Source: a virus
Taxonomy: Duplodnaviria; Heunggongvirae; Uroviricota; Caudoviricetes
Reading direction: 5' to 3' (one strand)
DNA: 23,505 bases
Virus record (IMG/VR): IMGVR_UViG_2925939204_000004
Span: 1 to 23,505 of that record
A program made the position numbers and the translations under genes. Positions 593 to 20,651 of the stretch are shown here, piece by piece (the first letter of the stretch is position 1; each line of letters begins with the position of its first letter). Below the pieces are notes generated by a model, which ran no database searches, was not told where the DNA came from, and saw only the letters and a list, made by a program, of their open reading frames with translations.

Positions 593-703
593 AGCGACCT
601 CCCTTAACGTAGTGCTGTCGCTAGTTTAGGCTGAACTTGCTCAGACTCCAACTGATAGTTCGTTTTGTTTACTGATGCCGTAGAAAGGTCTCTTAGCAAG
701 AAT

Positions 704-726
704 AACCCCAGTTTAACACTGGGGTT
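704..726 (-). terminator. Hairpin (8-bp stem AACCCCAG / CTGGGGTT, 7-nt loop) downstream of the 742-1407 gene
   Basis: Perfect inverted repeat 18 nt after the stop of the minus-strand cargo gene, followed on the minus strand by a moderately U-rich stretch (AUUCUU). Confidence 0.4.
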
Positions 727-741
727 GCTTGCAACAGAGCG

Positions 742-1407
742 TCAATTTTTAAGAGCACTGATACAGAAAAATTGCATGACATTTTTCTTTATTGATTTAA
801 ATAAGCTAAACATTGTGACAGGTTCAAAGCTAGTTAACTCGATGAATTCCTCTCTCATTTGAGAAAGTAACAGCTGACGTACTGATTCAATTTCTGCTGT
901 TTGTTTTCTCAAATATCTTGAGAAAACAAGTAGTTCATCAGCTGTTTTGTTTTGGCCATTTATAAACGTAACAGGTTGCCCTGGCTTAGATATGAGAAAA
1001 AATTGGTTAATTTTATCAAGTAATGGTGGAATTATTTTTTTCCATTCAGCCCATTCTTTTTCACGATGAAACTCCAGACTGTGCTGACATGTTCTTAGTT
1101 GCTGTATATCAATCGCCCAGACCTCACTCTCATCGAGGCAATCTTTCCATTTGCTAATTACATTAATGTCAAATTTTTTGTTCGGTAGATAATTATCTTT
1201 GGCGTGCGCTTCCAGTATAGAGGCAAGAGTACCTGTATATTGCATCAAATTGGTAGATGCTCGGTTTACTAGCTCTGATATTCGATCTAGTTGAGTTGTT
1301 CTAATCTCAAGTGCTTTCTTTTTACGTTCATTTCGTAAAGCAAAATATGCAGCAAGGCAGACTGCAGCAACTGTGGCTGCTGGTGCGATAAAAATTTGCA
1401 TATTCAT
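742..1407 (-). CDS. AT-rich hypothetical membrane-anchored protein (cargo between D and ogr)
   Basis: ORF with AAGGA SD 8 nt before ATG at 1405-1407 (the internal Met of the tracked ORF). N-terminal hydrophobic helix MNMQIFIAPAATVAAVCLAAYFAL, then about 200 hydrophilic residues. GC content is visibly lower than in the flanking D and ogr genes. No family recognised. Confidence 0.5.
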   Translation of the reverse strand: MNMQIFIAPAATVAAVCLAAYFALRNERKKKALEIRTTQLDRISELVNRASTNLMQYTGTLASILEAHAKDNYLPNKKFDINVISKWKDCLDESEVWAIDIQQLRTCQHSLEFHREKEWAEWKKIIPPLLDKINQFFLISKPGQPVTFINGQNKTADELLVFSRYLRKQTAEIESVRQLLLSQMREEFIELTSFEPVTMFSLFKSIKKNVMQFFCISALKN

Positions 1408-1601: not shown

Positions 1602-2711
1602 TTACTCTGTTTCTGCTATCCATTCCGGGATTTTGGCTTCAAGCTCAAGCTGCGTGGTAAAGCCACTGTTATCAATGGTGTGCTCGGCTTTTGCAATGAT
1701 CCAGTCCTGATTATCAATCTCGCTTTTAAATCCTGTTACCGTGCCATGCATTTCGGGGTAGAGCTCTGCTCGTCCACGTGCCAGCGTGATGGAAAATGAT
1801 GCGGCTCCGCGTTGTAGCTGCTGCCACTTTGCCGCCGCTGCGCGTCTTGCTGCCTGCTCGTTCTGATAAGTTTTGCGTAACACAAACACATTGCCTTCCG
1901 CGCCTTCCATATAATCACCTTCACGGCTGCTGCTTTTCTCCTTTTTGGGTTTTGGCGGTTTGCGGCGTTTCACGCTGACTTTTTTCTTTTTCCCGTAATT
2001 AAGATCAAGCCAGTAAGCGCGTACCCCCGTATACGCTTCGCGGTCAGCAATGCGGAACTGATGGCGATCGCCACTGCTGCGCGTGATGGCGAACGAGGGC
2101 AACGGCTGGCCCTGCGCGTTCACGCCACCGCCTGGCATGATGAATAACAGATTACCGCTTTTTACCGTGGTGATTGCGCCCAGCATTTCCGCCATGCGCG
2201 TAAGGAAGGACATGTCGCTTTCTTCGGTCTGGTCGGCGTGGTCGATTTCGATATCCATCAGCATTTCGCTGATTTGCGGTTTCAGACCATACCGATGAGC
2301 GATGGCGGATACCACACGCTCAACGGTCACATCATGCCAGGACACCTCACGTTTAACGTTAAATTCATCCCGAAAATCTGCGCTTCTGGCTGAAACAGTC
2401 AGCCTGTCCGGCGGTCCTTCGTGAGCGATTTCATCAACAATGTAAGTGCCTTTTTCTGTCAGCGGTTCTCCTTTCCAGCCAATGAGAACCGTCAGGCGCG
2501 CGCCCCGTGGCGGTAGCTGCAACTGACCATCCGCATCATCCAGCGTGATGGTGAGCTGGTCCGCCTCAAATCCCCGGTTGTCGGTCAGTGACAGGCTCAT
2601 CAGGCGCTCTGCCACGCCTGACAGCGTTTTACCCTCCGCGAGAATATCAAAATCCGGCATTTTCACGGGGTCTGTGCCCTGACTGAGCAATTGCATGGTG
2701 GTGTCGGTCAT
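1602..2711 (-). CDS. D: P2 gpD-family tail protein (late control gene D)
   Basis: Translation contains SLSLTDNRGFEADQLTITLDDADG, SWHD and a basic KKKKVSVKRRKPPKPKKEK linker, as in gpD. Start placed at the internal ATG (2709-2711) preceded by GGGAGGGAG rather than at the upstream extension. Confidence 0.85.
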   Translation of the reverse strand: MTDTTMQLLSQGTDPVKMPDFDILAEGKTLSGVAERLMSLSLTDNRGFEADQLTITLDDADGQLQLPPRGARLTVLIGWKGEPLTEKGTYIVDEIAHEGPPDRLTVSARSADFRDEFNVKREVSWHDVTVERVVSAIAHRYGLKPQISEMLMDIEIDHADQTEESDMSFLTRMAEMLGAITTVKSGNLLFIMPGGGVNAQGQPLPSFAITRSSGDRHQFRIADREAYTGVRAYWLDLNYGKKKKVSVKRRKPPKPKKEKSSSREGDYMEGAEGNVFVLRKTYQNEQAARRAAAAKWQQLQRGAASFSITLARGRAELYPEMHGTVTGFKSEIDNQDWIIAKAEHTIDNSGFTTQLELEAKIPEWIAETE

Positions 2712-2868
2712 CTGCTCCCTCCCTGTGTGGCATGGTCGCATGTGCGTGCGGAGGGGGTTACTGCTTTTTGTTGTCGCCGTGGCGGGAGAATGGCGCAGGG
2801 GTGAGATTACGCGCGTGGTGGGTGATGATTGTTGCCGAATCATTTAACGGATACAAGGGGCTGAAGCT

Positions 2869-4619: not shown

Positions 4620-4985
4620 ATGAAAGAGACGAAAAACATCGATACCGAAAACACGGTAGTTGCTGACACTGTGAAAGAAACCAGTGAGCGTGGCGTAAAA
4701 CTTACCCAACCAATTGAGCGAGGCGGCGAAAAAATCACGTATGTGGAGATCACCGGAGCTATTGAGCAGGCTGGATCTCTGCGAGATTTGTCGCTGTCTG
4801 ATGTGCTGAATCTGAAAGCGGAATCCATGTTTACGCTGCTGTCACGCGTGACATCACCGCGACTGGATGAAGTGACGATCAAAAAAATGGCATCCCGTGA
4901 CTTTATTCAGTTATGTGTGGTTGCCGTAAATTTTTTGAGCGGTGCGGACTCTGGCGGGAAGAACGAACAGGCGACGGAAGCCTGA
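4620..4985 (+). CDS. E: Tail assembly chaperone gpE (zero-frame product)
   Basis: AAAGGAG SD 7 nt before ATG at 4620. Sits between tube and tape-measure genes and contains the T6G slippery heptamer. Confidence 0.75.
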   Translation: MKETKNIDTENTVVADTVKETSERGVKLTQPIERGGEKITYVEITGAIEQAGSLRDLSLSDVLNLKAESMFTLLSRVTSPRLDEVTIKKMASRDFIQLCVVAVNFLSGADSGGKNEQATEA

Positions 4986-7955: not shown

Positions 7956-8444
7956 ATGATGATGATCTACGGCATGTTTGTTTTTGAGCTGCGCACATTG
8001 CCGCATCAGCAGTTACAGCAAAACAAAAGCTGGCGGCATGTGAAAAATGAACGCGTTAACCGTTCAGCAAGCTGGCAGTATATCGGCGCAGGTGATGATC
8101 GCATCGTGCTTTCCGGCGTGCTTTATCCTGAAATTACAGGTGGCGAAGTGTCGCTTTCGTTGCTGACCACACAGGCATATACAGGACGCCCCTGGCCTCT
8201 GATTGATGGTGTCGGGCAGATTTACGGCATGTATGTACTGACTGAAACGAATACGACCCGTTCCGAGTTTGATCGCTACGGTAAGGCGAAAAAGATAGAA
8301 TTTTCACTGACCCTTGAACGCTGTGATGAGGATTTGCGGGAGCGTCTGCAATCCTCATCGTTCAGTGATATGCTGTCCGGCTTCAAAGATAAGGTCACAT
8401 CATCCCTTAACAGCGCGGCCAGTTCAGTTAAAGGACTGTTCTGA
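7956..8444 (+). CDS. U: Tail protein gpU
   Basis: Translation MMMIYGMFVFELRTLPHQQLQQNKSWRH...VLSGVLYPEITGG resembles P2 gpU. GGAG sits 8 nt before ATG 7956. Confidence 0.85.
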   Translation: MMMIYGMFVFELRTLPHQQLQQNKSWRHVKNERVNRSASWQYIGAGDDRIVLSGVLYPEITGGEVSLSLLTTQAYTGRPWPLIDGVGQIYGMYVLTETNTTRSEFDRYGKAKKIEFSLTLERCDEDLRERLQSSSFSDMLSGFKDKVTSSLNSAASSVKGLF

Positions 8445-8540: not shown

Positions 8541-9719
8541 TTATAAAGAATTGCTACTTTCTAATTCTGGGTTTCTGGATCTATTTTTACAACCTAAATC
8601 CGAGTGGTAATTCGGTATATCGTTTGTCAAATCTTGTTTGATAGCATTAATTAAGATCATTATGTCGAATTTATGCATATCGTCGCCCCCTTCAGACCTT
8701 AGATGTTCGGATGTGGTGAGTTGAGTCGCTAATTTGCTGTTTGGCCCCCACACAATATTATTTTCGAATTTTCCTTCATGCATTCTGTTATTATATATAC
8801 AGTATTGTCTAATGTTTAATGCACTGGCTAAATGTACAATGGCAGTATCTACAGTTATAACAAAATCAGCATGGCGAACCAATGCAAATGAACATCCGGC
8901 ATCAGAAAATGGAGATAGAGACACATTATCCAATCCATTGTGATTAATCTGTTTTCCCATATTAAAAACTATTGTGTGATATCCCTTAAGGTTATTAAGG
9001 TAAGCTAGTACTTTGTTTATCTGTTCATCAGATAAGGTTCTGCTATTCTGAGAGCCATAAGGGTTAAATATAACTAATTTTTTGTTTTTCTTCCTGAATT
9101 CATTTGCAACAATATTTGCTGGTTCATATATTTTGTTGTCAAAATTAAGCGCTGCAGCATAATTATTATTTTTTATCTTTAGTAAAGATAAAACTTTTTT
9201 CATTCTTTCAGATGTGTGAATGGAACGATTATCGATTATATTTGTATCAAAAATAGTTACGGCAGGATGATTAAAACAGATAGAGTGTTTAGGTCTAAGT
9301 AAATGTAGTGTTTGCAATCTGGTTATCGCTGTGTTATCAAAATTTGAGAAGTCAACAACAAGATCTACATTCAGTTTTTTTATCTTTGCTTTTAGTTCGT
9401 TAAATTTATTTTTCTCGTAAGATATAAAGGCATCCACGCCAACAATATCAGTAAAGAGGAATGATACTCTTGAAGGTGCTATCACATATACCACCATACC
9501 GGATTTTTGAAGTTGTTTAATAAACCCTGAGGTAACGATGCCGTCACCAATGGCTTGCATGTGCATGAAAATGCACACTGTTTTATAACTATCCGGCTGT
9601 AATGATGTTTTCCTTCTGTATCGCATTTTTAGAAATGCCAGTCTGGCCTTCGTCTTTATCTTTTTTGTTTTAATATTTCGCTGTCTGTTAAGCTGTTTTA
9701 ATGATGAAATAACATTCAT
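8541..9719 (-). CDS. GT9-like (heptosyltransferase-fold) glycosyltransferase, AT-rich cargo
   Basis: Very AT-rich ORF. N-terminal VCIFMHMQAIGDGIV...VYVIAPS and C-terminal KKLVIFNPYGSQNSRTLSDEQ and ADFVITVDTAIVHLASALNI resemble GT9 motifs. Start uncertain: the tracked ORF begins at TTG 9779 and the ATG at 9719 has only a weak SD. Confidence 0.5.
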   Translation of the reverse strand: MNVISSLKQLNRQRNIKTKKIKTKARLAFLKMRYRRKTSLQPDSYKTVCIFMHMQAIGDGIVTSGFIKQLQKSGMVVYVIAPSRVSFLFTDIVGVDAFISYEKNKFNELKAKIKKLNVDLVVDFSNFDNTAITRLQTLHLLRPKHSICFNHPAVTIFDTNIIDNRSIHTSERMKKVLSLLKIKNNNYAAALNFDNKIYEPANIVANEFRKKNKKLVIFNPYGSQNSRTLSDEQINKVLAYLNNLKGYHTIVFNMGKQINHNGLDNVSLSPFSDAGCSFALVRHADFVITVDTAIVHLASALNIRQYCIYNNRMHEGKFENNIVWGPNSKLATQLTTSEHLRSEGGDDMHKFDIMILINAIKQDLTNDIPNYHSDLGCKNRSRNPELESSNSL

Positions 9720-9813
9720 AATGGTACCCTGAAATTCCAAATCACACATGTCATCCGAAATGAGCAGGGTACTATACAAAAAACTGGACTACAATGGTTT
9801 GAAATGAAAGCCT

Positions 9814-10413
9814 TTATGCTTGTTTACTCCTTGATTCCACTGGGGAAGCTGGCCACTCAATATCCGGTGCTCTTGATGTATCAACACGGTTCAGCAGCAC
9901 TCGATACTTCTTCCAGGCTTCCAGCAACGAGATTTCTTCCTCCGTTGCGATTTCCAGATCTACAGCATCCTGAAGTGGCGCAATATGCTCACTGGCTACC
10001 TGCATCAGGCTGTTTTTTGTTTCTTCTGCCTCCCGGATCCGGAACAGTTTTTCTGCTTCCGTATCCTTCACCCAGGCTGTGCCGTTCCACTTCTGATATT
10101 CCCCTTCCGGCGACGACCAGGTAACATTTTCCGGTAACGGACCGAGTTCAGAAATAAATAACGCGTCGCCGGAAGCCACGTCATAAACCGTTTTACCACG
10201 ATGATCTTCAACGAGATGCCAAGACGCCCCATCACTGTTGAAAACAGCCACGAAGCCAGCTGGAATATCTGGCGGAGCAATATCAGTACTATTTGCAGGC
10301 AGACCTGTATGAGGTGGAATGTATGCATCACCTTCACCAATAAATTCATTGGTTCCGACCAGCAGATTATAAATTTTTATGGTTCGTGGTTGTTCACTCA
10401 TTCTGAATGCCAT
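9814..10413 (-). CDS. Tail fibre assembly protein (Tfa, P2 gpG-like)
   Basis: 199 aa with conserved C-terminal [26 protein letters not shown]. Its ATG overlaps the stop of the upstream tail fibre ORF (TAATG). Confidence 0.85.
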
Positions 10414-11480
10414 TATGCAAGCCTCACAATATAGTTAAATGCGATGTTTTTTACGGTGTTTTCCGCGTTGCCATAAGCGGCAATGGTAATGGTGTGTGTG
10501 TGCGAACCAATAGCGAGCGTATGTGTATGCGCACCTATTGCTACTGTGTGAGTATGAGCTCCTGCGCTTAATACGCGATTACTTGCTGTCTTGCTTGTGT
10601 TAGTTGCATGCATTCCACCACCGGTACCGGGAGTTTCTGCGTATGCTGAAGTATTGTTGTAAGCAAAGTTGTGTGTATGTGCTCCGGTGTTATTTGTGGA
10701 TTTAGTTCCGTAATCAAACGACGATGTGGTTTTCGTCCCCAAATCCGTACTGGATGCGCTGGCGCTGTGGGTGTGCGATTTAATGCCGTCCTGTTCCTGA
10801 GACAATACGGCCCGACCACTGGCAGGTTTGCCCTTAATCGTCCAGCCACGCATATCAGGGATCACGCCTGACGGATAAGCGACTGCAAGTTTCGGGTAGG
10901 CAGATTTGTCAAAAGTCTGCCCCTGCATCAGGGCATAACCAGACGGAACGGTATCCGATGGCCACGGGATTGGTGCGCCAGGCGGATAAAACTGCTCTGA
11001 TGGCGTATAGAGTGAATAAACTGTACCGTCCGTTAACCCTTCCGGCTTATTAGCAGAATATGCTGGTGACGGATGAATCGTTACGCTGGCATTACTGGTA
11101 TAATCCCATTGAATATTTACACCAGTCGCATAATTTCCGATTGCAACGTAAATATCGTAAGTATCACCAGATGTATTGACCCAGGCAAAATTTGTAAACC
11201 CTGCCGATGTGCGCTGCCATAAAGCACCAGTAATCCCCTTCGGATTACCATTACCTGCACGCAAAACAATTTCAGATATACCTGCCTGTTGAGGTGAACC
11301 GACGTTATATCCAGCGCCACCAATCAACGTAATTGAAACAACAGAACTCGCCTGTGGCATGGTTACCGTTGCTAATTTGAACCAACCAGCACCACCTCTG
11401 AATGACATTGTTGTTGAGTTAAGCGTACCAATATCTTTCGGTGTCAGTGTTATATCCGCTGAAAGCGCCTTACCATTCAC
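10413..11480 (-). CDS. Tail fibre protein, C-terminal receptor-binding region; N-terminally truncated relative to P2 gpH
   Basis: C-terminus carries [24 protein letters not shown] fibre repeats. The ORF opens only with GTG 21 nt after an in-frame stop. An ATG-AGT (Met-Ser) start sits right after the I stop but hits a stop after 6 codons. Confidence 0.55.
10470..10565 (-). repeat. Tandem degenerate coding repeats (about 24 bp, HTHT-x-AIG units) inside the tail fibre gene
   Basis: Three consecutive units visible in both the DNA and the translation. Confidence 0.4.
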
Positions 11481-11504
11481 CTTACGGGCAGAAGGTACTC
11501 ATGC

Positions 11505-12467
11505 TTAATCGTCCGGATAAATGGTAATGACTTCACCGTCGTAAGTTGCTGCCGCCGCGAAAATATCCCCCGGAATTTCCTGAATGATATTCAGCCCTGT
11601 CATGTGGCGGCTGACCGGGCGGGCATCAGCAATCAACCGCTCCATTTCCAGATACATTTCCTCCGTCACGCCACTGTCCAGCGTGCCGACTTCAACGGTA
11701 AATGTTCCCGGTTCTCCGCCGAACTCCCACCACTCAGACACGCGAATGAGGTATCCCAGCGGCTCAATGGCCCGGCGCAGTGCGCTGATGGTTCCTTTGT
11801 GTCGGTGTATCAGCCATGCATCACGAATCACCTGTCGCTTTGTCTCTTCCGGCCAGTTGCGATCCCAGCGGTCAACGGAAAACGCCCAGGCGAGATAAGG
11901 CAGCAGATGCACCGGGCAGGTGTCCGGCGACCACAGCGTGTTGAGGTCTACCGGAATGTCTGTAACGTCCTGAAGCAGCTTGTTGGTGCTGAAGTTGGAC
12001 TCATCTGCGTGAGACGTGCCGTTGAAACCGATCATGATGCGGTCAAGCGCCACCTGCCGGGCAATCTGTGTGCTGACGCGTGACTGAAAATCAGGGTGTG
12101 CCGCCCAGGCATCAAGCTGCGGATACGAAATAAACGTGTCGTAGTTCACCTGTTCGCACTGATATTTACGGTTTTTCAGATCAACCACGTTATTCGGGTT
12201 ACGGCGTTTTGTGCCGTCATAACTGGTATTCGTGCGCGCAATCGGCCCGGTGGTGTCCAGGAGGATTTTTTCGCCTTTCTGGTCGGTCACACCGAACACG
12301 TTAATTTTTTTTGTAAATTCAGTGCTCTCCTTTACTGCGTTTTCAAAACGCTGCTGCACCGAGGGTTCCACGGTAAATCGCGATACCAGTGCAGATACCG
12401 GGATGTTGTTAAGCGACGCCTGCTGCGCCATATAGCAACCCAGCTTGTTGCGGGTAATATCTGACAT
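11505..12467 (-). CDS. Chimeric ORF: N-terminal half of major capsid protein gpN fused in frame to tail protein gpI (deletion remnant)
   Basis: Residues 1 to about 172 resemble gpN (FTVEPSV, RKYQCEQVNYDTFISYPQLDAWA, IMIGFNGT). From about 11965 downstream the protein resembles gpI (LWSPDTCPVHLLPYLAWAFSVDRWDRNWPEE, LGYLIRVSEWWE, MERLIADARPVSRH). Confidence 0.7.
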   Translation of the reverse strand: MSDITRNKLGCYMAQQASLNNIPVSALVSRFTVEPSVQQRFENAVKESTEFTKKINVFGVTDQKGEKILLDTTGPIARTNTSYDGTKRRNPNNVVDLKNRKYQCEQVNYDTFISYPQLDAWAAHPDFQSRVSTQIARQVALDRIMIGFNGTSHADESNFSTNKLLQDVTDIPVDLNTLWSPDTCPVHLLPYLAWAFSVDRWDRNWPEETKRQVIRDAWLIHRHKGTISALRRAIEPLGYLIRVSEWWEFGGEPGTFTVEVGTLDSGVTEEMYLEMERLIADARPVSRHMTGLNIIQEIPGDIFAAAATYDGEVITIYPDD

Positions 12468-12502
12468 CACCAGATTCATAAAAAATTTGCTCCTTTGTCT
12501 TA

Positions 12503-13339
12503 TCAGAAGTCAGCCAGTTGATCGGAGGCTGCGCCCGTTGCGGTGAACCGGTTCTGCGGATCGCCGTCCTGCGTGCGCAGTTTTTCCTTCAGTGCTGTCA
12601 GCTCTGTGGTCAGTAAAGTGATTTTCTGGCTGTCCTGCTGATGGCGGGTTTCCAGCGCATTAAAACGGTCGATAATGTCGGCCTGTGACGTTGCGACACC
12701 TTCCACCGCTTCCTGAATACGGGAGAAACTGGCGTCATCCGCTTTGCGGCCACGGCCAATAATCCCCATAACGCGGTTAAACCACTGGGTGCCTTCTTCC
12801 TGACGTTGTTCGGTGAGTTCGATAAGTTCTGACTCCATAGCGGCGGTAAACATCGCCACGTCTCCCTGCTGACAGTTGAATGTCATCAGTTGCATACGTT
12901 GTTGTGCCGCAAAGACCAGACGTTCCGTGCCCAGGCTGGCAGGGGTGTCGGTCATTGCCAGCCCGCGCAGGTAAGGGCCTCCCGTGATGGTTGACTGTGG
13001 TTCCAGCTCAATACTGGAGTAAATTTTTTTACCATCGTTAAGCAGGGACATCATGCGAGCGGTCGGCTCAATTTCGGCATACAGTGCCGTGCGGCCTGCC
13101 AGCGGGCCATCGGTTATGTCTTCGGTGCTCAACCCCACAACATCGCCCATAGCGGAAAACTCGCTACCGGGGAGTGGTGACAGGATGTGCTCAATATTCA
13201 CACGTGCACCATAAACGGACGGGTTATAACTGGTGGCGGCAGCTTTCAGCATGTCGCCGTTGATTTCGCGCCCGTCTGCCGTTACACCGGAGACAGCCAC
13301 GCGAAACTTTTTGCGGGATGTCTTTTTTTCATTAGCCAT
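12503..13339 (-). CDS. O: Capsid scaffolding protein (P2 gpO family)
   Basis: Translation MANEKKTSRKKFRVAVSGVTADGREI...VYGARVNIEH resembles gpO. GAGGGG SD precedes ATG 13337-13339; the tracked ORF's upstream extension was rejected. Confidence 0.85.
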   Translation of the reverse strand: MANEKKTSRKKFRVAVSGVTADGREINGDMLKAAATSYNPSVYGARVNIEHILSPLPGSEFSAMGDVVGLSTEDITDGPLAGRTALYAEIEPTARMMSLLNDGKKIYSSIELEPQSTITGGPYLRGLAMTDTPASLGTERLVFAAQQRMQLMTFNCQQGDVAMFTAAMESELIELTEQRQEEGTQWFNRVMGIIGRGRKADDASFSRIQEAVEGVATSQADIIDRFNALETRHQQDSQKITLLTTELTALKEKLRTQDGDPQNRFTATGAASDQLADF

Positions 13340-13499
13340 AGTTTTTGCCCCTCTGACTGGTTCTTCAGTCATGATGGCAAAGCGTAACAGGCTGATACAA
13401 AGGGCTTTTGTTGTAAGAAAACGGCCAGAACAGGGGGTTAAGGAGAACGGTTTCGCGCGCGGGTAATCTTCCTGTAGCGATCTTGAATCATGGTGGTAT

Positions 13500-14105
13500 G
13501 TGCAGGATGGCAAGGATGCGTTCCAGTTTCGCCCTGGCAAAGTGTGCCACCTGATGAATCCTGACATTAACCAGGAAATCTACGGCATGCCGGAATATCT
13601 CGGCGCATTACTCTCGGCCAGCCTGTCTCATTCGGCGGACATGTTCAGAAAACTGTATTACGACAACGGATCCCACGCCGGGTGCATCATCTACATCGGT
13701 GCAGCGCAGGTAAACCGCGAAAGCATGGACTCCCTGAAAGAAACGCTACAGGGTGCACGTGGTGGCGGTGCGTTTAAAAACGTGCTCATTCATGCGCCCA
13801 ACGGGGGCAAAGAGGGGGTGCAAATTTTGCCGTTCCAGCAGATCACCGCAAAGGATGAGTTCATGAATGTTAAGGCGGCATCCCGTGATGATGTGCTGGC
13901 TGCGCACCGCGTTCCGCCGCAACTGATGGGGGCGATGCCGGGTGAAAAAAGTGCGTTTGGTGATGTGGAGAAGGCCGCGCGGGTTTACGCAATTAACGAG
14001 CTGATGCCCGTCATGGAGGCCATGAAGCACATCAATGACTGGCTTGGCGAAGAGGTGATCCGCTTTAACCCTTACGCACTGTTAGATACCCAGCCCACAT
14101 CCTGA
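13500..14105 (+). pseudogene. Portal protein (P2 gpQ family), C-terminal fragment of about 200 aa
   Basis: Contains PDINQEIYGMPEYL and RDDVLAAHRVPPQLMG portal motifs but begins with GTG only 160 bp from the divergent O start. There is no room for the N-terminal portal half or for the terminase gene P. Confidence 0.65.
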
Positions 14106-14130
14106 CGCGCTTCGCTTGTCTGCTGCTTCG

Positions 14131-14157
14131 CCGGGGCATAAAAAATTTATGCCCCGG
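14131..14157 (+). terminator. Perfect 12-bp-stem hairpin (CCGGGGCATAAA aaa TTTATGCCCCGG) after the portal fragment
   Basis: 27-nt perfect palindrome 26 nt after the Q stop. No U tract follows, so it may be a structural or recognition element rather than a terminator. Confidence 0.3.
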
Positions 14158-14443
14158 CTCTCCAGCTCCTGTATCAATCAGATAATTTCACGACGCTTTT
14201 CTGCTTATTGCCATCATCGGCGGTCAGACTCTTACGCAATCCCACCGCGTTGACTGCATGTTCTTCGCCGCCTCAGTGCGATTTTGACGGCCTTACCTTT
14301 CACCCCATCAAATCAGAATCCCTCACGTATTTTTCACGCTCAGCGTGAGAAATACAGCCATTCTGTTGTGTCTCTGCGACATCGTTCAGGGAATGCTATT
14401 TACCCCCTGAAACGCGGGCTGTTCCCCCGTCACCTGCGCGCAG

Positions 14444-14487
14444 AAAAAACGCGTTTTTTTGTGCACGCACGGATCCCTGACGGATCC
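14444..14487. repeat. Palindrome cluster: AAAAAACGCGTTTTTT (16-bp perfect), GTGCAC, and CGGATCC-ctga-CGGATCC
   Basis: Read directly from the sequence; non-coding region between the portal fragment and the PIN gene terminator. Confidence 0.45.
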
Positions 14488-14530
14488 AGCCGCCACGCGG
14501 GCCGGAAGGGCAAAAAGTCGTTCAAAAAAA

Positions 14531-14570
14531 TTGTGCAAATTTGTGCACTATTGTGCATTGCGCACTTGTT
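14531..14570. repeat. Three TTGTGCA direct repeats at exact 10-bp phasing, followed by TTGCGCAC
   Basis: TTGTGCAaat / TTGTGCActa / TTGTGCAttg at 14531, 14541, 14551; a fourth TTGTGCA at 14459. Candidate protein-binding array. Confidence 0.45.
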
Positions 14571-14580
14571 ATAAATAAAC

Positions 14581-14605
14581 AAAAAAAGAGCCGCTATTGC
14601 GGCTC
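14581..14605 (-). terminator. Rho-independent terminator of the HTH-peptidase/PIN operon
   Basis: On the minus strand GAGCCGC-AATA-GCGGCTC is followed by a T7 run, 33 nt after the PIN gene stop. Confidence 0.7.
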
Positions 14606-14638
14606 AATATAATCCAATATGGCAAGAGAAATTTGGAT

Positions 14639-15157
14639 TCATTCGAAACTGGCAAGAATCTGTTCTCGAACAGAAGATTTCATCGTTAACCCACGATCTA
14701 GGAAAAATTGGAAATGCATTAAGGCTTGTTGTTTGTGTATAAGTCTCCTGCGCACAGCCTCTTGAAGTAGCCCTCCGTGGCGGGCGGCTTTTACACCGCG
14801 TTCCGCACACGTTTTATAAACCGCATTATCCGCCGAAAGACATGTTGCATCATGTATTCTCGCGTTAACAACGCAGCTTATGTCCGCATACTTCAATGCT
14901 CTCCTGCGATTTTTTATCTCAGCCATTTCAATAAAATGTTCAGGTTCGTAATCATTGGTGAAATTGTATGGAAGTTGCAGGCGTGTAAGCTGTTCCTGAA
15001 CATCAAGATTGTATTTAGCTTTTAGTTCCTCGCAGACATAGGGGTCAATCCACACACCACCCGGGTAAATTTGCCAGATAATATCTAAGCATTTACCTTC
15101 GTAAAAATCAGACAGTACATTCGTATCGATAACACATCTGGGGCATTCAAACGGCAT
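14639..15157 (-). CDS. PIN-like (VapC/DUF4411-like) putative nuclease; toxin or effector candidate
   Basis: Starts at ATG 15155-15157, overlapping the upstream gene's stop by 11 nt. N-terminus CVIDTNVLSDF with downstream acidic residues (CEELK, IHDATCLSADN) spaced as in PIN folds. AT-rich. Confidence 0.6.
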   Translation of the reverse strand: MPFECPRCVIDTNVLSDFYEGKCLDIIWQIYPGGVWIDPYVCEELKAKYNLDVQEQLTRLQLPYNFTNDYEPEHFIEMAEIKNRRRALKYADISCVVNARIHDATCLSADNAVYKTCAERGVKAARHGGLLQEAVRRRLIHKQQALMHFQFFLDRGLTMKSSVREQILASFE

Positions 15158-16292
15158 CCTCTCCGGCCTCCTGTTCGTCGTACCATTCATCCAGAAGATT
15201 GCTGAGAGCTTTTCTGTCTAATTCTAAAAGTTCAGATATGAAGGTTTCCGACGCGGAACCGGCTTCCCATGCTTTACGCGATAAGACGGTTAGGCGACCT
15301 TTATAATTTAGTGCTTCCCTAATGGGATTTGGCTCGTGTCTCTTCCAACCTTTACGATTGGCGGTTGCCCATAGGTATCTAGTGTTTTGTTGATTAATTA
15401 AATTACATTTACTAAGACGATCGATGATGCAAGTGGCTGATACTCTGAAAATGCTTTTTAGTCTAAGGACGGTTTCCTCATACGCCCATCCACCACCTTG
15501 CATGACGAATTGTTTTCGCAATGCGCTTTCTGGTACCAAAAAACAAGCAGCAAAGTGATTAGCAACTTTTTCTTCCGGTGAAATTGCTTTGCCATTAGTT
15601 TTATAGCTTTTAGCAGGGCCATGATACTCATCACGGTGGAAGATAAGATGAGCATATTCATGGCAAATACTGAAGATTTGACGTTCTATTGAAATGCTGT
15701 CGTGAACATTTACATAAATCGCGGTACCGTATTTGTTCGAAAACGCAGAAAATCCGAATACCATCCCTTTATCGGTTTCTTCGCGATTGAACGGGATTAC
15801 TCGAATATCCGATGCTTCCAAAATGGCTACAATGTCACCAACGCAAGTAGCGTTTCCTATACCAAGACGGAAACGTTCTTCCATAGCCTTATCTTCGACT
15901 CTTCGCAAATCTTCTGCTTTGGCGGTAAAAATAGGCATTGAGTTAGGAAGATCTTCTGGCAAATTAGCATCAGCAGCTTCCTCAATTGCATTGATATTTT
16001 TTAACTTTTCAATCAACTCATTGCGAAGTTTGGCATCCAACAAATCCGGACTATCTGCTCGCATTGCAAAACGAAACTCGCCATCATCTTGCTCATAAAA
16101 ATACCCGATAGGCTTATCGAAAATCTTGCAGAGCATGATGAGTTGGGTAACGCTTGGGACGCCTAACGCCTGCTCAAACTTACTGTAGGTTTGACGAACA
16201 ACACCGATCGCATCTGCGACGGCGCTTGCACTCATTCCCGCGTCGTTTCTGGCCTGAACCAAGCGTTCTGCTATACGCTGTTGAATGTTCAT
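15147..16292 (-). CDS. XRE-family HTH fused to an ImmA/IrrE-type (COG2856/M78) zinc metallopeptidase
   Basis: N-terminal HTH (QRIAERLVQARNDAGMSASAVADAIGVVRQTYSKFE) and an intact HEXXH motif in SICHEYAHLIFH. AGGTGA SD precedes the start. AT-rich. Confidence 0.7.
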   Translation of the reverse strand: MNIQQRIAERLVQARNDAGMSASAVADAIGVVRQTYSKFEQALGVPSVTQLIMLCKIFDKPIGYFYEQDDGEFRFAMRADSPDLLDAKLRNELIEKLKNINAIEEAADANLPEDLPNSMPIFTAKAEDLRRVEDKAMEERFRLGIGNATCVGDIVAILEASDIRVIPFNREETDKGMVFGFSAFSNKYGTAIYVNVHDSISIERQIFSICHEYAHLIFHRDEYHGPAKSYKTNGKAISPEEKVANHFAACFLVPESALRKQFVMQGGGWAYEETVLRLKSIFRVSATCIIDRLSKCNLINQQNTRYLWATANRKGWKRHEPNPIREALNYKGRLTVLSRKAWEAGSASETFISELLELDRKALSNLLDEWYDEQEAGEDAV

Positions 16293-16446
16293 ACGTCACC
16301 TGAATTTAACAATGGTGGCTCTTATGGGTTTAGATTGGTTAATTATTACTAACATTATGAATGGAGAGTTGCAAAAATCATAGTTAAATTATGCAAATTT
16401 CATGGAGCGTGATGTGGTGTGGGTTCACACTCTCTGCTGATTACAT

Positions 16447-16467
16447 CCAGGGCGGTTTCCGCCCTGG
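16447..16467 (-). terminator. GC-rich hairpin (CCAGGGCGG ttt CCGCCCTGG) after parR
   Basis: Perfect 9-bp stem 7 nt after the ParR stop; no U tract. Confidence 0.3.
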
Positions 16468-16473
16468 CTCTGC

Positions 16474-16785
16474 TTACTCAGGAAATAGCGCCCGGATATT
16501 TCCGGCCATCTGACTGGTTATCTGTGCGGTTGGTACTGGCTGTGACACGGGGCGTTCTGTCCTGGTTTGTGTCACGGATAACGCCTCATCGTCAGCCCAT
16601 GCAGCCAGTCGGTAAGCCTCTGCCGGATTCATTTTCAGAAGTGCCAGCCCGGCCAGAAAAGCCACGCGTTGGCCGCTTTTGCGGGCTTCTGGTGTAAGGC
16701 TGTCCAGCCAGGCGCATGCTTCGCCTTCGTTCTTGACGGCGGCGGGCTTCAGATAGAAACTTATCCGTCTGGTTGGTGTCGTCAT
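16474..16785 (-). CDS. parR: ParR/StbB-like centromere-binding adaptor
   Basis: Start at ATG 16783-16785 with AAGGAG SD, 4 nt after the parM stop. N-terminus RRISFYLKPAAV...AWLDSLTPEARKSGQRVAFLAGLAL resembles the ParR ribbon-helix-helix region. Confidence 0.65.
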   Translation of the reverse strand: MTTPTRRISFYLKPAAVKNEGEACAWLDSLTPEARKSGQRVAFLAGLALLKMNPAEAYRLAAWADDEALSVTQTRTERPVSQPVPTAQITSQMAGNIRALFPE

Positions 16786-16789
16786 TGGT

Positions 16790-17749
16790 TTACTCCTTGT
16801 CCATTGCGTACAGCCCATTAACCAGAGCAAACTGTGGCACCCCGTCCGCGATGAAAGTCGCATTAACTCCGCAGGCTTCGCGGATAGCGGGTGCCACAAT
16901 CTCCGCCCCGCCACCGACAACCATCACCCGCCCGTAACCCGAAAAATCCGCCAGCGCGCGGATCACGCGTTGTTTCAGTGTTTCTTCCTTTTCACGAATA
17001 ACCGCCATCAGGCTGGCGTAATGCGCGTCATTGTGGATGTGCTGGCGCAGCCAGGCTTCATCATGGCGATGTTCGATAATGGTATTGGCGATGTGGTGAC
17101 TGGTGCGCATACCGTTAGTGGCCATCACCGACAGTACGGCATCGGCCATCAGAGAAACGCCTACGTGTGGATCGCAAAACACCTGGCTGATACCTGCCAG
17201 TTGCCCCTGAACCTTTGCCACATCCAGCGTGGTTCCGCCCAAATCCACAATCAGCAGGGATTCAAACGGACTCATGTCAGCCAGTGCCTTAAAGCCAGCC
17301 GGAATGGATTCAGGCATAACCCGCACGTTACGGATAGTGAATGCCTCACCGTTCTGGTACTCCACCGGGCGCATGACGTTCGCTTTTTTGCGGTTGATGT
17401 TGGCCATGTCCGGCTGTGCGTTTGTGTCGAAATATTCGCTCAGTGGCAGGGTGACAACCACATCCACCTCCTGTGGCGTGATGCCTGATTTGACCAGCGC
17501 GTGATGAATGGCAATGACATTCACATCGCTGTACTGGTATTGCGTGTCGGTCGTCTGGACAAAGCGATCGCTGACCGGATCAAAACCATAGCGCACGCCA
17601 TCAAGCATGTAGTTCGCGGGCTGCGTGCCACCGAACGGCGCAGACCATTCCGACTTGAAGCTGTTCGGGCTGATGGCGTTGCGGCGTTCGCCGTTCTCAG
17701 TCCATGCCAGCTTGATGTTGGTGGAGCCGTCATCGATACAAATTTTCAT
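16790..17749 (-). CDS. parM: ParM/StbA actin-like partition ATPase
   Basis: MKICIDDGSTNIKLAW...ISPNSFK...YQYSDVNVIAIHHAL...VMPESIPAG...LIVDLGGTTLD...VVGGGAE aligns along its length with plasmid R1 ParM from memory. Confidence 0.85.
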   Translation of the reverse strand: MKICIDDGSTNIKLAWTENGERRNAISPNSFKSEWSAPFGGTQPANYMLDGVRYGFDPVSDRFVQTTDTQYQYSDVNVIAIHHALVKSGITPQEVDVVVTLPLSEYFDTNAQPDMANINRKKANVMRPVEYQNGEAFTIRNVRVMPESIPAGFKALADMSPFESLLIVDLGGTTLDVAKVQGQLAGISQVFCDPHVGVSLMADAVLSVMATNGMRTSHHIANTIIEHRHDEAWLRQHIHNDAHYASLMAVIREKEETLKQRVIRALADFSGYGRVMVVGGGAEIVAPAIREACGVNATFIADGVPQFALVNGLYAMDKE

Positions 17750-17780: not shown

Positions 17781-17892
17781 TTTACGGGATTCTGAAATCC
17801 CGTTTTTGCCTGTTTTGTGCGCGCTTCATATATCGCTGCGCGTTTTTTGCTCATTTACGGGATTCGTGAGTCCCGTTTCTGTCTGTTTTTTG
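17781..17892. repeat. Two about 39-bp imperfect direct repeats, each with an internal dyad, upstream of parM (candidate parC)
   Basis: R1 17781-17819 TTTACGGGATTCTGAAATCCCGTTTTTGCCTGTTTTGTG; R2 17854-17892 TTTACGGGATTCGTGAGTCCCGTTTCTGTCTGTTTTTTG (about 31/39 identical). R2 lies inside the last codons of gene A. Confidence 0.4.
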
Positions 17893-20651
17893 TTTCCGCT
17901 GGTCAGGCCACCCCGCAGCAGGTCTGCTTTGCGGCTGGCGCGTTCAGTGGTTTCACTGATTCTCTGTGCGTGCTCTGCGTCGCGGATGGCGCGCAGCATG
18001 TCAGAAAGCACGGTAACGGGTGTTTTCATGGTGTTCTGGTCCTGCTGAAGTGTGGATGCCAGGCGTGCGGCGGCTTCAGGGTCTGATGCCCCTAGTAGTT
18101 CCAGATAGCTGGCGACCGGGTTATGGCGGATTTCCATGCTGTTTACGCCATGATTACGGCTCAGGCGCTGCCAGAGCTGCGTGATTCGGCTGTCCGGGCG
18201 GGTATCCGGTTTGCGTACAATTTCAAATCCCTGCGGTGCAATGATGCTGCCGTCAACGTACAGACTGCCGCCCCGTAACAGGTGCTGCATCTGTTGTTCA
18301 CCGATATGCAGGCCGAGAGATTCAGCAGACTCTCGCCATTCTTTAGCGAGTAATTCGTGGTTATCAGGCAAAGGCCGCTGCTGTTTGCGGCTCTGTGTCC
18401 AGCTCTGCATTTCATCACTGCTGTTTTTTGCCTGTTTGTCACGCAGCGAACGCATCAGCGCCCGGCGTTCGTGCCGTTTCAGTGAGCGCATCCATTCATT
18501 CACTTCAACGCCGTCAGGGAGCTGCGGCCACGGTGCTGGCCGTTCTTCCGGCTGTTCTGTCCCGTTGTTGTTCGTTTCCTGTACACGGGGACAGTTATTG
18601 CCACGAGTCCAAGGGGCGGCTGGGCCGCCCTGAAGGTCAAAACCATTTTCGCGGGCGCTGTCTTCCGCTTCCGGTTTACGTCTTACCAGCTTCCAGTTAT
18701 CCGGATGCGTGCACACACGGGAGGATTCCCCGATGAGTGGTGACCAGATCCCGTAAATCTGTACGCTCTGTTCGCCGTAATCGTTCAGCTCATCTGCGAG
18801 GTCGTAGGCAGTGCGAATCAGGTAGTCTTTGCGTGGAACAAGTACGCCGCCCTGTTTTTCAATGTAGGTGGCAAAACACCCGGCATCGGCGGCAGCGAGT
18901 ACCGCATCCATTGCGTCATCCTTCAGCCGTTGCGGGCCTTCCGGGTTGCGTGCCATCTGGCTGGCAAGGCGGCGCAGTTCACGCCACACCTGACGGGAGG
19001 GGATGCCAAAGAACTGGAACTGGCGGACCCGATGAAGGCGCGCCCAGCCGATGGCGCGCTCCACGCTCTCGGCCATTGATTTTCCGGTTTCGTGGTCAAC
19101 GCGTGGTTTGCCCGTTTTCGGATCGATTCCATCCACGGCGCGGTTGTCCAGGTTTTTTCCGATGTAGGTGGCGATGTAGCTGGTTGGCGTGCCTTTGGAG
19201 CCGTCGACGTACTCCACCTTAAAGCGCGGAGTAATATCATTGCCCAGCTCGTGGCGGTCTTCCTGAATGGCAATATCGCGGGTGATGGCCACGATGCTGT
19301 CGATTTCTTCCGGATGAGCAAAGACCATCATATGCCAGTGCACGGTGCCGTCATGGTGAGGCTCCACCGTGCGGATGCCATACCAGCGCAGGCCGTCGCG
19401 GTTCAGTTTTTTGCGGACCGCCGCAAAAAAGGTGTTAACCAGGTAATCGCTGGAGTCGCGCATGGTGGCCCCGTTCCATTTGGGATTCGGATGACCGTTC
19501 TCTGTTGTGGCGTGGTATTTTGACGGGCAGGTGACAGTCAGAAACACCGCTTTGTCGCCACGGGCTTCGGCCAGAAGTTCCAGTCCCTTCATGGTGGCCA
19601 TCATTTCTGCCTTACGGTGAACCGGGTTACTTACTCCCGCGTAATACACTGTCTCGAGATCAATCGTGAAGCCGTCTTCGTTTTCCAGTTCGAAGCTCTT
19701 CAGGAAGTCGCGGGTTTTCTCGCGCTGTGCGCGAAACTCGCTTAACGCGTCCTGGCTCAGATAGGGTGATGTTTTTCTGGAAACCAGACAGGCGGCGCGG
19801 AGTTGTTCTTCTCTCCACTCACAACGTAACAGCCACAGTTTGCGTTTCCACCAGTCCGCACAGGTCAGGCGAAGGATTGCGCCCGGCAGCAGTTCCGTAT
19901 CCGGTTCGCTCTTGTTCAGGGCTTCGTAATGTGGCGGCATGATGTGCAGGCGTAATGCGATACGAGCCAGCATCCGGTAAGCCTTCAACATTACATCCAT
20001 GGTCAGCTCGCCATCTCTGGCACCAAAGCCATCGCAGAGTGTTTCGAAGGTGCTGCTGAACATCGCCGCGGTCATGGTGGCCAGCGTCTGTATCTGGTGC
20101 TTGTTGAGCTGCGGCAGGTAAAGCAAATCGTCCAGGCGTTCGCGCCCGGCAAGGGAGCGATAACCCGGTGTCAGCCAGCGTCCGTCAGTGCGATCCAGAC
20201 GTTCGAATATTTTGCGCAGGGTTCCGCGTGCATAGCGTTCCGCCTGCCAGCTCTTTTTGCCTTTCTGGCGATCGGCTTCCTGTTTTTTGCGCAGGAAAGA
20301 GAGGTGGCGGCTCAGTGGTTCACGCAGATAAACAGGTAGTGCCTTTAGTGTGGCAAAGGCACGGGCTACCGGGTCTTGTTCTGTTGCCCGGCGCTTACTG
20401 ATGATGCTCTGTGCCAGCTTTTCACGCTGTCCGGCTTCCTCAAGGGATGCCATGAGTTTTTTACCCATGGAGGATTGTGCGAAAAAGGCTTCTTCCTTCG
20501 CTTCCTGTTCTTCCTGTGCCCTTTTGTCCGCCTCAAGGTAGTAACGGATGGCGCGTTGCAGGTCGGTTTCAGTTTCCTGCCTGCGCTCCGTAAATCTGGC
20601 CGGATCAATGGCTGGCCGTGGTTCATTCCAGCTCCATGCAAACTCACTCAT
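17826..20651 (-). CDS. A: Rolling-circle replication initiator (P2 gpA family)
   Basis: HUH motif (VHWHMMVF) and catalytic Tyr region (TPTSYIATYIGKN). Start taken at the ATG overlapping the upstream stop (ATGA at 20648-20651). At 941 aa it is longer than P2 gpA. Confidence 0.85.
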   Translation of the reverse strand: MSEFAWSWNEPRPAIDPARFTERRQETETDLQRAIRYYLEADKRAQEEQEAKEEAFFAQSSMGKKLMASLEEAGQREKLAQSIISKRRATEQDPVARAFATLKALPVYLREPLSRHLSFLRKKQEADRQKGKKSWQAERYARGTLRKIFERLDRTDGRWLTPGYRSLAGRERLDDLLYLPQLNKHQIQTLATMTAAMFSSTFETLCDGFGARDGELTMDVMLKAYRMLARIALRLHIMPPHYEALNKSEPDTELLPGAILRLTCADWWKRKLWLLRCEWREEQLRAACLVSRKTSPYLSQDALSEFRAQREKTRDFLKSFELENEDGFTIDLETVYYAGVSNPVHRKAEMMATMKGLELLAEARGDKAVFLTVTCPSKYHATTENGHPNPKWNGATMRDSSDYLVNTFFAAVRKKLNRDGLRWYGIRTVEPHHDGTVHWHMMVFAHPEEIDSIVAITRDIAIQEDRHELGNDITPRFKVEYVDGSKGTPTSYIATYIGKNLDNRAVDGIDPKTGKPRVDHETGKSMAESVERAIGWARLHRVRQFQFFGIPSRQVWRELRRLASQMARNPEGPQRLKDDAMDAVLAAADAGCFATYIEKQGGVLVPRKDYLIRTAYDLADELNDYGEQSVQIYGIWSPLIGESSRVCTHPDNWKLVRRKPEAEDSARENGFDLQGGPAAPWTRGNNCPRVQETNNNGTEQPEERPAPWPQLPDGVEVNEWMRSLKRHERRALMRSLRDKQAKNSSDEMQSWTQSRKQQRPLPDNHELLAKEWRESAESLGLHIGEQQMQHLLRGGSLYVDGSIIAPQGFEIVRKPDTRPDSRITQLWQRLSRNHGVNSMEIRHNPVASYLELLGASDPEAAARLASTLQQDQNTMKTPVTVLSDMLRAIRDAEHAQRISETTERASRKADLLRGGLTSGNKKQTETGLTNPVNEQKTRSDI

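Follow-up and report, generated by a model that had tools for sequence, protein, structure and literature searches.

We analysed a window of 23,505 nucleotides (nt), positions 1 to 23,505 of the IMG/VR virus record IMGVR_UViG_2925939204_000004, which is an E. coli prophage lying between ihfA and btuC, and focused on the truncated tail-fibre gene H on its minus strand (window 10413-11504). This feature is very probably an inactive H remnant of a P88-like prophage, whose deletion has its right end at a recurrent TA breakpoint, here called site S (GGG|TA|CCTTCTGCC). In lambdoid and P88-like prophages, junctions in Stf-type fibre genes recur at the TA of S with nucleotide precision, and the endpoint of the deletion is not random. 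The remnant is a pseudogene of H and its truncation alone is routine prophage decay; the interest of the locus stems from the breakpoint S, not from the truncated gene itself.

Window positions 9700-12600 were compared by megablast with 5,426 complete E. coli genomes. The locus was found at 100% identity in 14 genomes, and 10 of these 14 held about 1 kb of extra DNA. In strain 165, whose flanks are 100% identical to the window, an intact 2,112-nt gene for a "phage tail protein" of 703 amino acids (aa) lies between I' and tfa. Strain AR_0128 has the window sequence, and the NCBI annotation there consists of a C-terminal pseudogene fragment only. Alignment to the intact allele showed that exactly 1,022 bp are missing from the window. 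A GTACC pentamer bounds the deleted segment on either side (H nt 5-9 and 1027-1031), and a single copy of this 5-bp microhomology is left at the junction (window 11494-11498, minus strand), where TA at 11497-11496 is the crossover dinucleotide of S. The deletion runs from codon 3 to codon 343 of H; its length of 1,022 bp is not divisible by three, so the frame was shifted. The order I-H-G is retained, but the reading frame from the H ATG is not continuous.

Two kinds of domain fall inside the deleted segment and are absent from the open reading frame (ORF) of the window: Phage_tail_fib at the N-terminus (PF12571, aa 6-153 in the intact allele) and Phage_fiber_2 (PF03406) with all four of its repeats. 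The Collar domain, the HxH region and Tfa were kept. These results showed that the fibre gene lost its baseplate anchor, its four shaft repeats and its reading frame through a 1,022-bp deletion between GTACC pentamers. The original prediction, an internal deletion with frame loss that took the N-terminal anchor and spared the receptor-binding end, was thereby proven against the strain 165 allele. The exact junction was present in 4 of the 5,426 genomes, and an assembly artefact was ruled out by this identical junction in four independently sequenced complete genomes. A separate and independent deletion of 599 bp was found in H of strain EC7518. It starts at the TACC (H nt 1028-1031) where the window deletion ends and extends in the opposite direction, and two independent events at S have thus occurred in one clonal prophage lineage of 15 genomes.

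The four Phage_fiber_2 units are 132 nt each and about 84-85% mutually identical (L001 7302-7829, intact H nt 529-1011). Their number differs among loci (the anchor scan gave offsets of -223, -355 and -492 nt), and the tandem array has site S at its 3' edge.

To survey S more widely, IMG/VR was scanned with the 27-mer just right of S. The scan gave 119 loci, and together with the window and the E. coli genome loci 127 occurrences were obtained. The canonical upstream sequence (...AATGGTCGGG) was found in 99 of the 127. The other 28 showed about 20 unrelated upstream contexts, all of which had TACC (CACC in one case) directly before TTCTGCC. Lambdoid remnants in the complete genomes of I4, B-1109 and 100416, which are unrelated to each other, have truncated DUF1441, terminase small-subunit and tail genes joined to stf exactly at S. 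The left partners included Nu1 (three kinds), terminase A, W, the prohead protease, the tape measure gene, K, J (twice), lom, the stf N-terminus, an stf repeat, ynaK (twice) and regions near recE and int. Since the partners differ, occur in all three frames and have the same orientation as stf, the events at S are independent cis deletions of 0.1 to about 40 kb. In total, about 23 different left partners were joined at the TA of S by 22 deletions and one inversion, the latter with both reciprocal junctions, and one more deletion went the opposite way.

Several controls were made on the scans. When the scan was anchored 380 nt downstream, S itself accounted for about 18 distinct events and the rest of the interval for about 5. 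A left-side scan returned canonical contexts in 111 of 113 cases, the exceptions being EC7518 and the metagenome contig L132, and an integrated element at S was ruled out on this count. Scans limited to non-canonical contexts indicated that the IMG/VR enumeration is nearly complete, and further new contexts at S were found in an independent metagenome collection. No non-canonical junction was found in the GTDB representative genomes. A prior description of a hotspot at S was not found in the literature.

These data bear directly on ordinary random illegitimate recombination as an explanation. On this view, the window deletion arose by chance slippage at the GTACC repeats, and coincidence or sampling bias accounts for the endpoint that it shares with other remnants. 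All deletions in the window prophage have microhomologies of 2-5 bp, which is typical of RecA-independent deletions, and no hairpin or other structure was predicted at S. Against this stand about 23 left flanks joined at the same dinucleotide without loss of any base of TACC, with only about 5 breaks elsewhere in 380 nt (P << 1e-20), and the two independent events in a single clonal 15-genome lineage. We regard a random origin as extremely improbable.

About one third of the S events are in frame, as expected by chance. In-frame fusions were found in L117 (S at 4821), L029 (S at 8268), L102 and L015; the predicted products are a mini-Stf (N-terminal 118 aa plus the receptor-binding end), J-Stf, tape measure-Stf and Nu1-Stf. 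Inside the fibre gene, 265 nt downstream of S, a further recurrent junction (GGAT|TA|CTGG) was used twice (L142 and L152), and the J-gene site GCATG|TA|CCGG was the partner in two different events (L029 and L142). These observations suggest a family of preferred TA sites beyond S alone.

The anatomy of the exchange was examined in 19 events for which an undeleted partner could be read in related loci. The partner dinucleotide following the retained left flank was TA in 15 of the 19, TG in 2 and CA in 2, versus a background frequency of TA of 3.7% in these regions (P ~ 1e-18). In several events TA was the sole identity between partner and S, and the switch is therefore confined to TA. The two partners with a CA core gave one TA and one CA product, a split outcome that a 2-bp heteroduplex would give. 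Compared with background TA sites, the partners resemble S at -4 to -1 (CGGG), +2 and +5, i.e. on both sides of the switch. In the ihfA-btuC prophage lineage, TA was present in 5 of 6 deletion junctions (TTA, GTA, GTACC, TACC and TA).

The inversion was recognised from two contigs of the same metagenome. In L132, the left side of S is followed by TA and AGTGCCGTTATAG..., and in L042, ...GGGCGCTG is followed by TA and the right side of S. Their foreign halves are the two sides of one portal-gene site in inverted orientation. L132 and L042 are the reciprocal junctions of an inversion in which no base was lost or gained.

To explain these features, we tentatively prefer a conservative exchange carried out by a protein, with a 2-bp overlap at TA, as known from serine recombinases at quasi-sites, although we put its chance at somewhat below even. 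An activity that breaks or exchanges DNA at S may join it to (C)GGG-TA-(Y)C-like sites. The usual outcome would be the deletion of upstream structural genes, leaving an orphan cassette of receptor-binding end plus chaperone. Judged as a serine-recombinase-type reaction, the events showed a switch confined to TA in all cases, one reciprocal pair and a 22:1 bias towards deletion. Judged as microhomology deletion, the window event has 5 bp of identity at both ends, yet one endpoint was fixed over more than 20 events. Conservative exchange would account for the precision, the two-sided similarity, the mixed outcome of mismatched cores and the inversion. By extension, E. coli could have an uncharacterised activity for the site-specific breakage and rejoining of DNA, with S as its preferred target, and the losses would then reflect the disarming of prophages or the generation of fibre cassettes rather than random decay; this wider proposal is likewise tentative and falls a little short of an even chance.

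Several points weigh against conservative exchange at S. No enzyme was identified for it. A recombinase acting on a palindromic TA core should give deletions and inversions about equally unless selection removes inversions, and 22 deletions were found versus 1 inversion. The inversion rests on two metagenome contigs, neither junction of which was found in complete genomes. The pre-event partner sequences were taken from related loci and are not the true ancestors, and one deletion junction in the ihfA-btuC lineage has TG rather than TA. In addition, S has no dyad symmetry beyond GGTACC and is unlike the sites of the Din family (the e14 pix site, compared with S, has a different sequence). The enrichment of pin near junction loci, described below, is weak and suggestive at most.

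The deletion bias is one reason to consider a fixed nick or double-strand break at S, made by a nuclease, an HUH-type nickase or fork arrest, after which the end is joined to or primed at upstream TA(CC) microhomologies. The TA requirement was strongest next to the junction, as expected of a 3' end that must pair. Events retaining the right side of S far outnumber those retaining its left side, with dispensable DNA of 20-40 kb upstream versus 2-3 kb downstream, which also agrees with such a break. On the other hand, free ends are normally resected in E. coli, yet no event lost a base, and the partners match S on the discarded left flank too (-4 to -1). A reciprocal inversion would need two breaks without loss at four ends, and no nuclease is known for the S sequence. 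We rate a fixed break close behind conservative exchange, with perhaps a third of our belief behind it.

Replication-arrest sites such as terB are known deletion hot spots, and microhomology-mediated illegitimate recombination occurs in E. coli. The S events share with these systems one fixed and one variable endpoint and a microhomology of a few bp. They differ in that S has no Ter-like sequence, that the junction is nucleotide-precise over more than 20 events, and that a reciprocal inversion occurred. No Ter-like sequence or structure was found at S, and a hairpin or cruciform was ruled out by folding z-scores of -0.06 to -0.74.

A further likeness to the S events is offered by the Din invertases (Cin with its cixQ quasi-sites, Pin, Gin and Hin). 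Both combine one fixed site with many weakly similar partners, a 2-bp core exchange, mismatched cores that resolve either way, deletion plus inversion products and a tail-fibre gene setting. Cin reportedly recombines at quasi-sites with 'localized conversion' of mismatched core dinucleotides. The differences are that the S sequence is unrelated to pix, gix and cix, that its core is TA versus AA, TT or GA, that it has no cognate inverted site and that deletions dominate. We also weighed whether S is a quasi-site for Pin-family invertases, encoded near many stf-tfa modules and acting in trans. A pin gene was present about 1.9 kb downstream of S, after tfa, in 7 of 15 junction loci versus 9 of 48 canonical loci (P = 0.04). 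It has also been reported that PinQ, PinR and PinE act in trans on another prophage and that all of them use the e14 pix sites (PMC12529663). However, neither the 12-2-12 dyad nor the AAACC-NN-GGTTT core of pix/gix/cix is present in S, and the pix core is AA/TT and not TA. Moreover, there is no inverted second copy of S, and the window prophage carries no pin. Pin action at S is unlikely.

In line with this comparison, 138 loci searched from -3 to +6 kb around S contained no Din-type motif (AAACC-NN-GGTTT with two 12-bp inverted half-sites), and no S-like or inverted second copy was found. An invertible segment or Din-type site was ruled out, as there is no inverted repeat, no AAACCnnGGTTT core and no second S-like site. 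Insertion sequence (IS) involvement was also ruled out, no IS end being present at any junction. Restriction of the KpnI/GTAC type was rejected because GTAC occurs in only 3 of 19 partners, and a 4-bp stagger of the gyrase type because inheritance at -1 and +3 does not fit.

The layout of the remnant was read from the minus strand, which is the coding strand of the whole feature. In gene orientation, window 11520 to 11470 reads TAT CCG GAC GAT TAA GC ATG AGT ACC TTC TGC CCG TAA G GTG AAT GGT AAG. The upstream ORF finishes with YPDD and a TAA stop at 11505-11507, and the residual start of H follows (11482-11502, minus strand): an ATG at 11502-11500, five further codons and TAA at 11484-11482 (MSTFCP*). 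The six-codon ORF agrees with intact H of L001 over the initial 9 nt and leaves the H frame after codon 3. The H-frame remnant occupies 10413-11495 (minus strand), which in the intact fibre is the stretch of residues 343-703. Within it, the ORF of 355 aa runs from the GTG at 11480-11478 to 10413, and one base separates this GTG from the six-codon stop. By alignment, the GTG is codon Val349 of the intact fibre gene, and its use as a start is undemonstrated. From Val349 on, the remnant is 100% identical to the C-terminus of H of the WP_069067388.1 type in strain 165.

The remnant ORF has the features of a receptor-binding C-terminus of the Stf/gp37 type. A Phage Tail Collar domain (PF07484, E = 1e-11) covers ORF residues 168-215 (window 10836-10979, minus strand). 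At 10494-10775 (minus strand) there are five HxH (HTH) motifs typical of the distal tip, and the conserved C-terminal end comes after them; PF03335 was also matched. Directly downstream is an intact tfa gene for a tail-fibre assembly chaperone of 199 aa (9814-10413, minus strand; Caudo_TAP, PF02413, E = 1e-43). The tfa start and the fibre stop share one base (TAATG), and one and the same Tfa accession is annotated in the intact and the deleted alleles.

Most of what had been read from the letters of this region agreed with these data. The ATG-AGT frame ending after six codons, the HTHT-type repeats near the end of the ORF and the intact, overlapping Tfa gene were all confirmed. Apart from the strand, which is the minus one, two readings needed correction. 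The ATG does lie where H should start, after the stop of I, but the ORF upstream is a fusion of capsid N' and I' and not an intact gene I. The long ORF does have about 355 aa, but the GTG is an internal valine codon of the intact gene rather than a demonstrated start.

No sigma-70-like promoter was found upstream of the remnant on the minus strand. There is also no Shine-Dalgarno sequence at usable spacing from the GTG at 11480, so the remnant has no ribosome-binding site of its own. With neither a nearby promoter nor a usable Shine-Dalgarno spacing, expression of the 355-aa fragment is unlikely, while termination-reinitiation at TAA-G-GTG would be possible. A functional role would require such reinitiation at the GTG, giving an anchor-less receptor-binding fragment that is folded by Tfa, masks the receptor and blocks phages. 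The one-base gap between stop and GTG and the intact Tfa would fit this role, cassettes of receptor-binding domain plus tfa are kept in many remnants, and a cryptic-prophage Stf fragment (StfE2 of e14) was reported to block T2 adsorption (PMC12529663). Besides the missing translation and promoter signals, however, expression would depend on a late promoter that Ogr activates, in a prophage that is repressed. With 4 genomes, the allele is rare and recent and so gives no sign of selection, and the junction frames are random across events. We consider a functional truncated ORF very unlikely. Lacking an anchor as well as these expression signals, the remnant most likely does nothing itself, and it could still serve as a recombination substrate.

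The fibre is mosaic. The N-terminal half of intact H shows about 91% nt identity to P88-type fibres. With gpH plus the assembly protein gpG of P2-like phages, and of P88 in particular, the fibre shares its place after gene I and, in the intact sister allele, the Phage_tail_fib domain and Phage_fiber_2 repeats. In the window, the anchor and repeats are lost, and the C-terminal 355 aa are of the lambdoid/P1 Stf type and not P88- or P2-like. The 355-aa remnant has 74% aa identity to the C-terminus of a 1,006-aa Stf of the P1-like phage JL22, and its last 190 aa have 61% aa identity to the lambda Stf C-terminus. For remnant plus tfa, DNA identities of 91-95% were found with the lambdoid stf/tfa of more than 1,000 E. 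coli genomes and with lambda, HK629, mEp and related phages. The likeness to lambda Stf-Tfa thus extends over the Collar domain, the HxH tip, the conserved C-terminal end and the Caudo_TAP chaperone as well as the 91-95% DNA identity.

We also asked whether complete fibres of about 355 aa exist in functional relatives. Only C-termini of long fibres were found: the place of the segment in sequenced phages is always the end of a longer protein (703 aa in P88-like prophages, 774 aa in lambda and 1,006 aa in JL22). A complete short fibre was ruled out, as sequenced phages carry the segment only at the end of a 703-1,006-aa protein.

Cryptic stf'-tfa remnants are known from Qin (stfQ'-tfaQ), Rac (stfR-tfaR) and e14 (stfE'). 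Like Qin, the window has an orphan C-terminus with an intact tfa; it differs from the lambdoid remnants in that the cassette sits in a P88-like myovirus backbone. Qin of K-12 breaks at another position (matches cover query 35-1180 only), whereas Qin-like remnants of other strains break exactly at S. Through Red-dependent relaxed homologous recombination, lambda is known to acquire stf/tfa DNA from Rac and Qin (PMC3945230). Because of this known acquisition, the earlier idea that the receptor-binding end plus tfa may act as a donor cassette for fibre exchange is reasonable, and we regard it as plausible; the high DNA identity to lambdoid stf/tfa (91-95%) also speaks for it.

If a specific activity does act at S, the "domestication" of E. 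coli prophages would be driven in part by this activity at a conserved fibre-gene site, beyond random deletion. The breakpoint would account for the commonness of orphan stf'-tfa cassettes and for the start base shared by many of the sampled truncated copies. Such cassettes would supply host-range exchange with its raw material and possibly serve receptor-masking defence as well. For annotators, S gives a rule for recognising these fragments as remnants. As a natural junction point, it may also help to engineer chimeric fibres, with the in-frame fusions of the stf N-terminus, J and the tape measure gene to S as examples.

The prophage that carries the remnant was already defective. Its divergent D|FI junction is 99% identical to P88 over 701 nt, and 13 phage records were matched; P88 is an inducible phage (PMC5285337). 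In strain M19, a related prophage with the same gene order has every expected gene annotated and no pseudogene marks. A rearranged P2 with an inverted FI-U block was ruled out, since this is the native order of P88-like phages (P88 and M19). From its backbone identity and the divergent D/FI order, the prophage is assigned to the P88-like group (P2-related, Xuanwuvirus). P2 had been taken as the frame of reference in the original prediction; the relation to P2 stands, but the prophage is P88-like and not P2 proper.

The ORF upstream of H (11505-12479, minus strand) is an N'::I' fusion of 324 aa, in which the first ~170 aa of a P2-family major capsid protein (PF05125) are followed by the last ~150 aa of baseplate protein I (PF09684). 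It arose by a 6,420-bp deletion with TTA microhomology (junction 11963-11965) that removed M, L, X, the lysis genes, R, S, V, W, J and the 5' end of I. Terminase P and the 5' part of portal Q were lost in another deletion (2,186 bp), whose junction GTA is at 13474-13476 (plus strand); the truncated portal Q region covers 13476-14105 (plus strand). Among the complete genomes, the N'::I' junction was found in 15, the P-Q junction in 5 plus 1 that is further truncated, and the H junction in 4. Two sister strains have the P-Q deletion and still keep an intact H, which sets the order of events: the N'::I' fusion came first, then the P-Q deletion and then the H deletion. The morphogenesis gene set is therefore incomplete, with the N'::I' fusion, P deleted, Q and H truncated and IS1 inserted. 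The prophage was dead before the H deletion, being unable to build either capsids or baseplates. Since it was already dead from the N'::I' fusion, the H remnant is a pseudogene within a nested series of deletions.

Decay of this locus is ongoing. Compared with the window, the isolate NZ_CM151386.1 (L167) has two extra deletions, at 13501-13944 (444 bp, TG microhomology) and at 14089-17117 (about 3.0 kb, TA), while its flanks are still 100% identical. An IS1A lies between ogr and gene D (676-1373, minus strand). The D ORF (1602-2843, minus strand) has 413 aa in the window versus 266 aa in the NCBI annotation.

Accessory genes were also noted outside the fibre region. An AT-rich gene (30-35% GC) for a glycosyltransferase of family 9 lies between tfa and U (8541-9719, minus strand). 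It is heptosyltransferase-like, occupies the moron position of P2 Z/fun and is conserved in M19-type relatives, and it is possibly a lysogenic-conversion gene that modifies lipopolysaccharide. Just past portal Q, a PIN-domain protein and an overlapping helix-turn-helix protein of 381 aa are encoded at 14639-16292 (minus strand). This pair occupies the variable old/tin position of P2-like phages, where the M19 relative has a different gene, and may be a defence or addiction module. Finally, a ParM-type segregation ATPase and a partition/stability gene (16474-17749, minus strand) represent plasmid-like partition equipment in an integrated prophage, and adjoin an intact replication endonuclease A of 950 aa (17826-20651).

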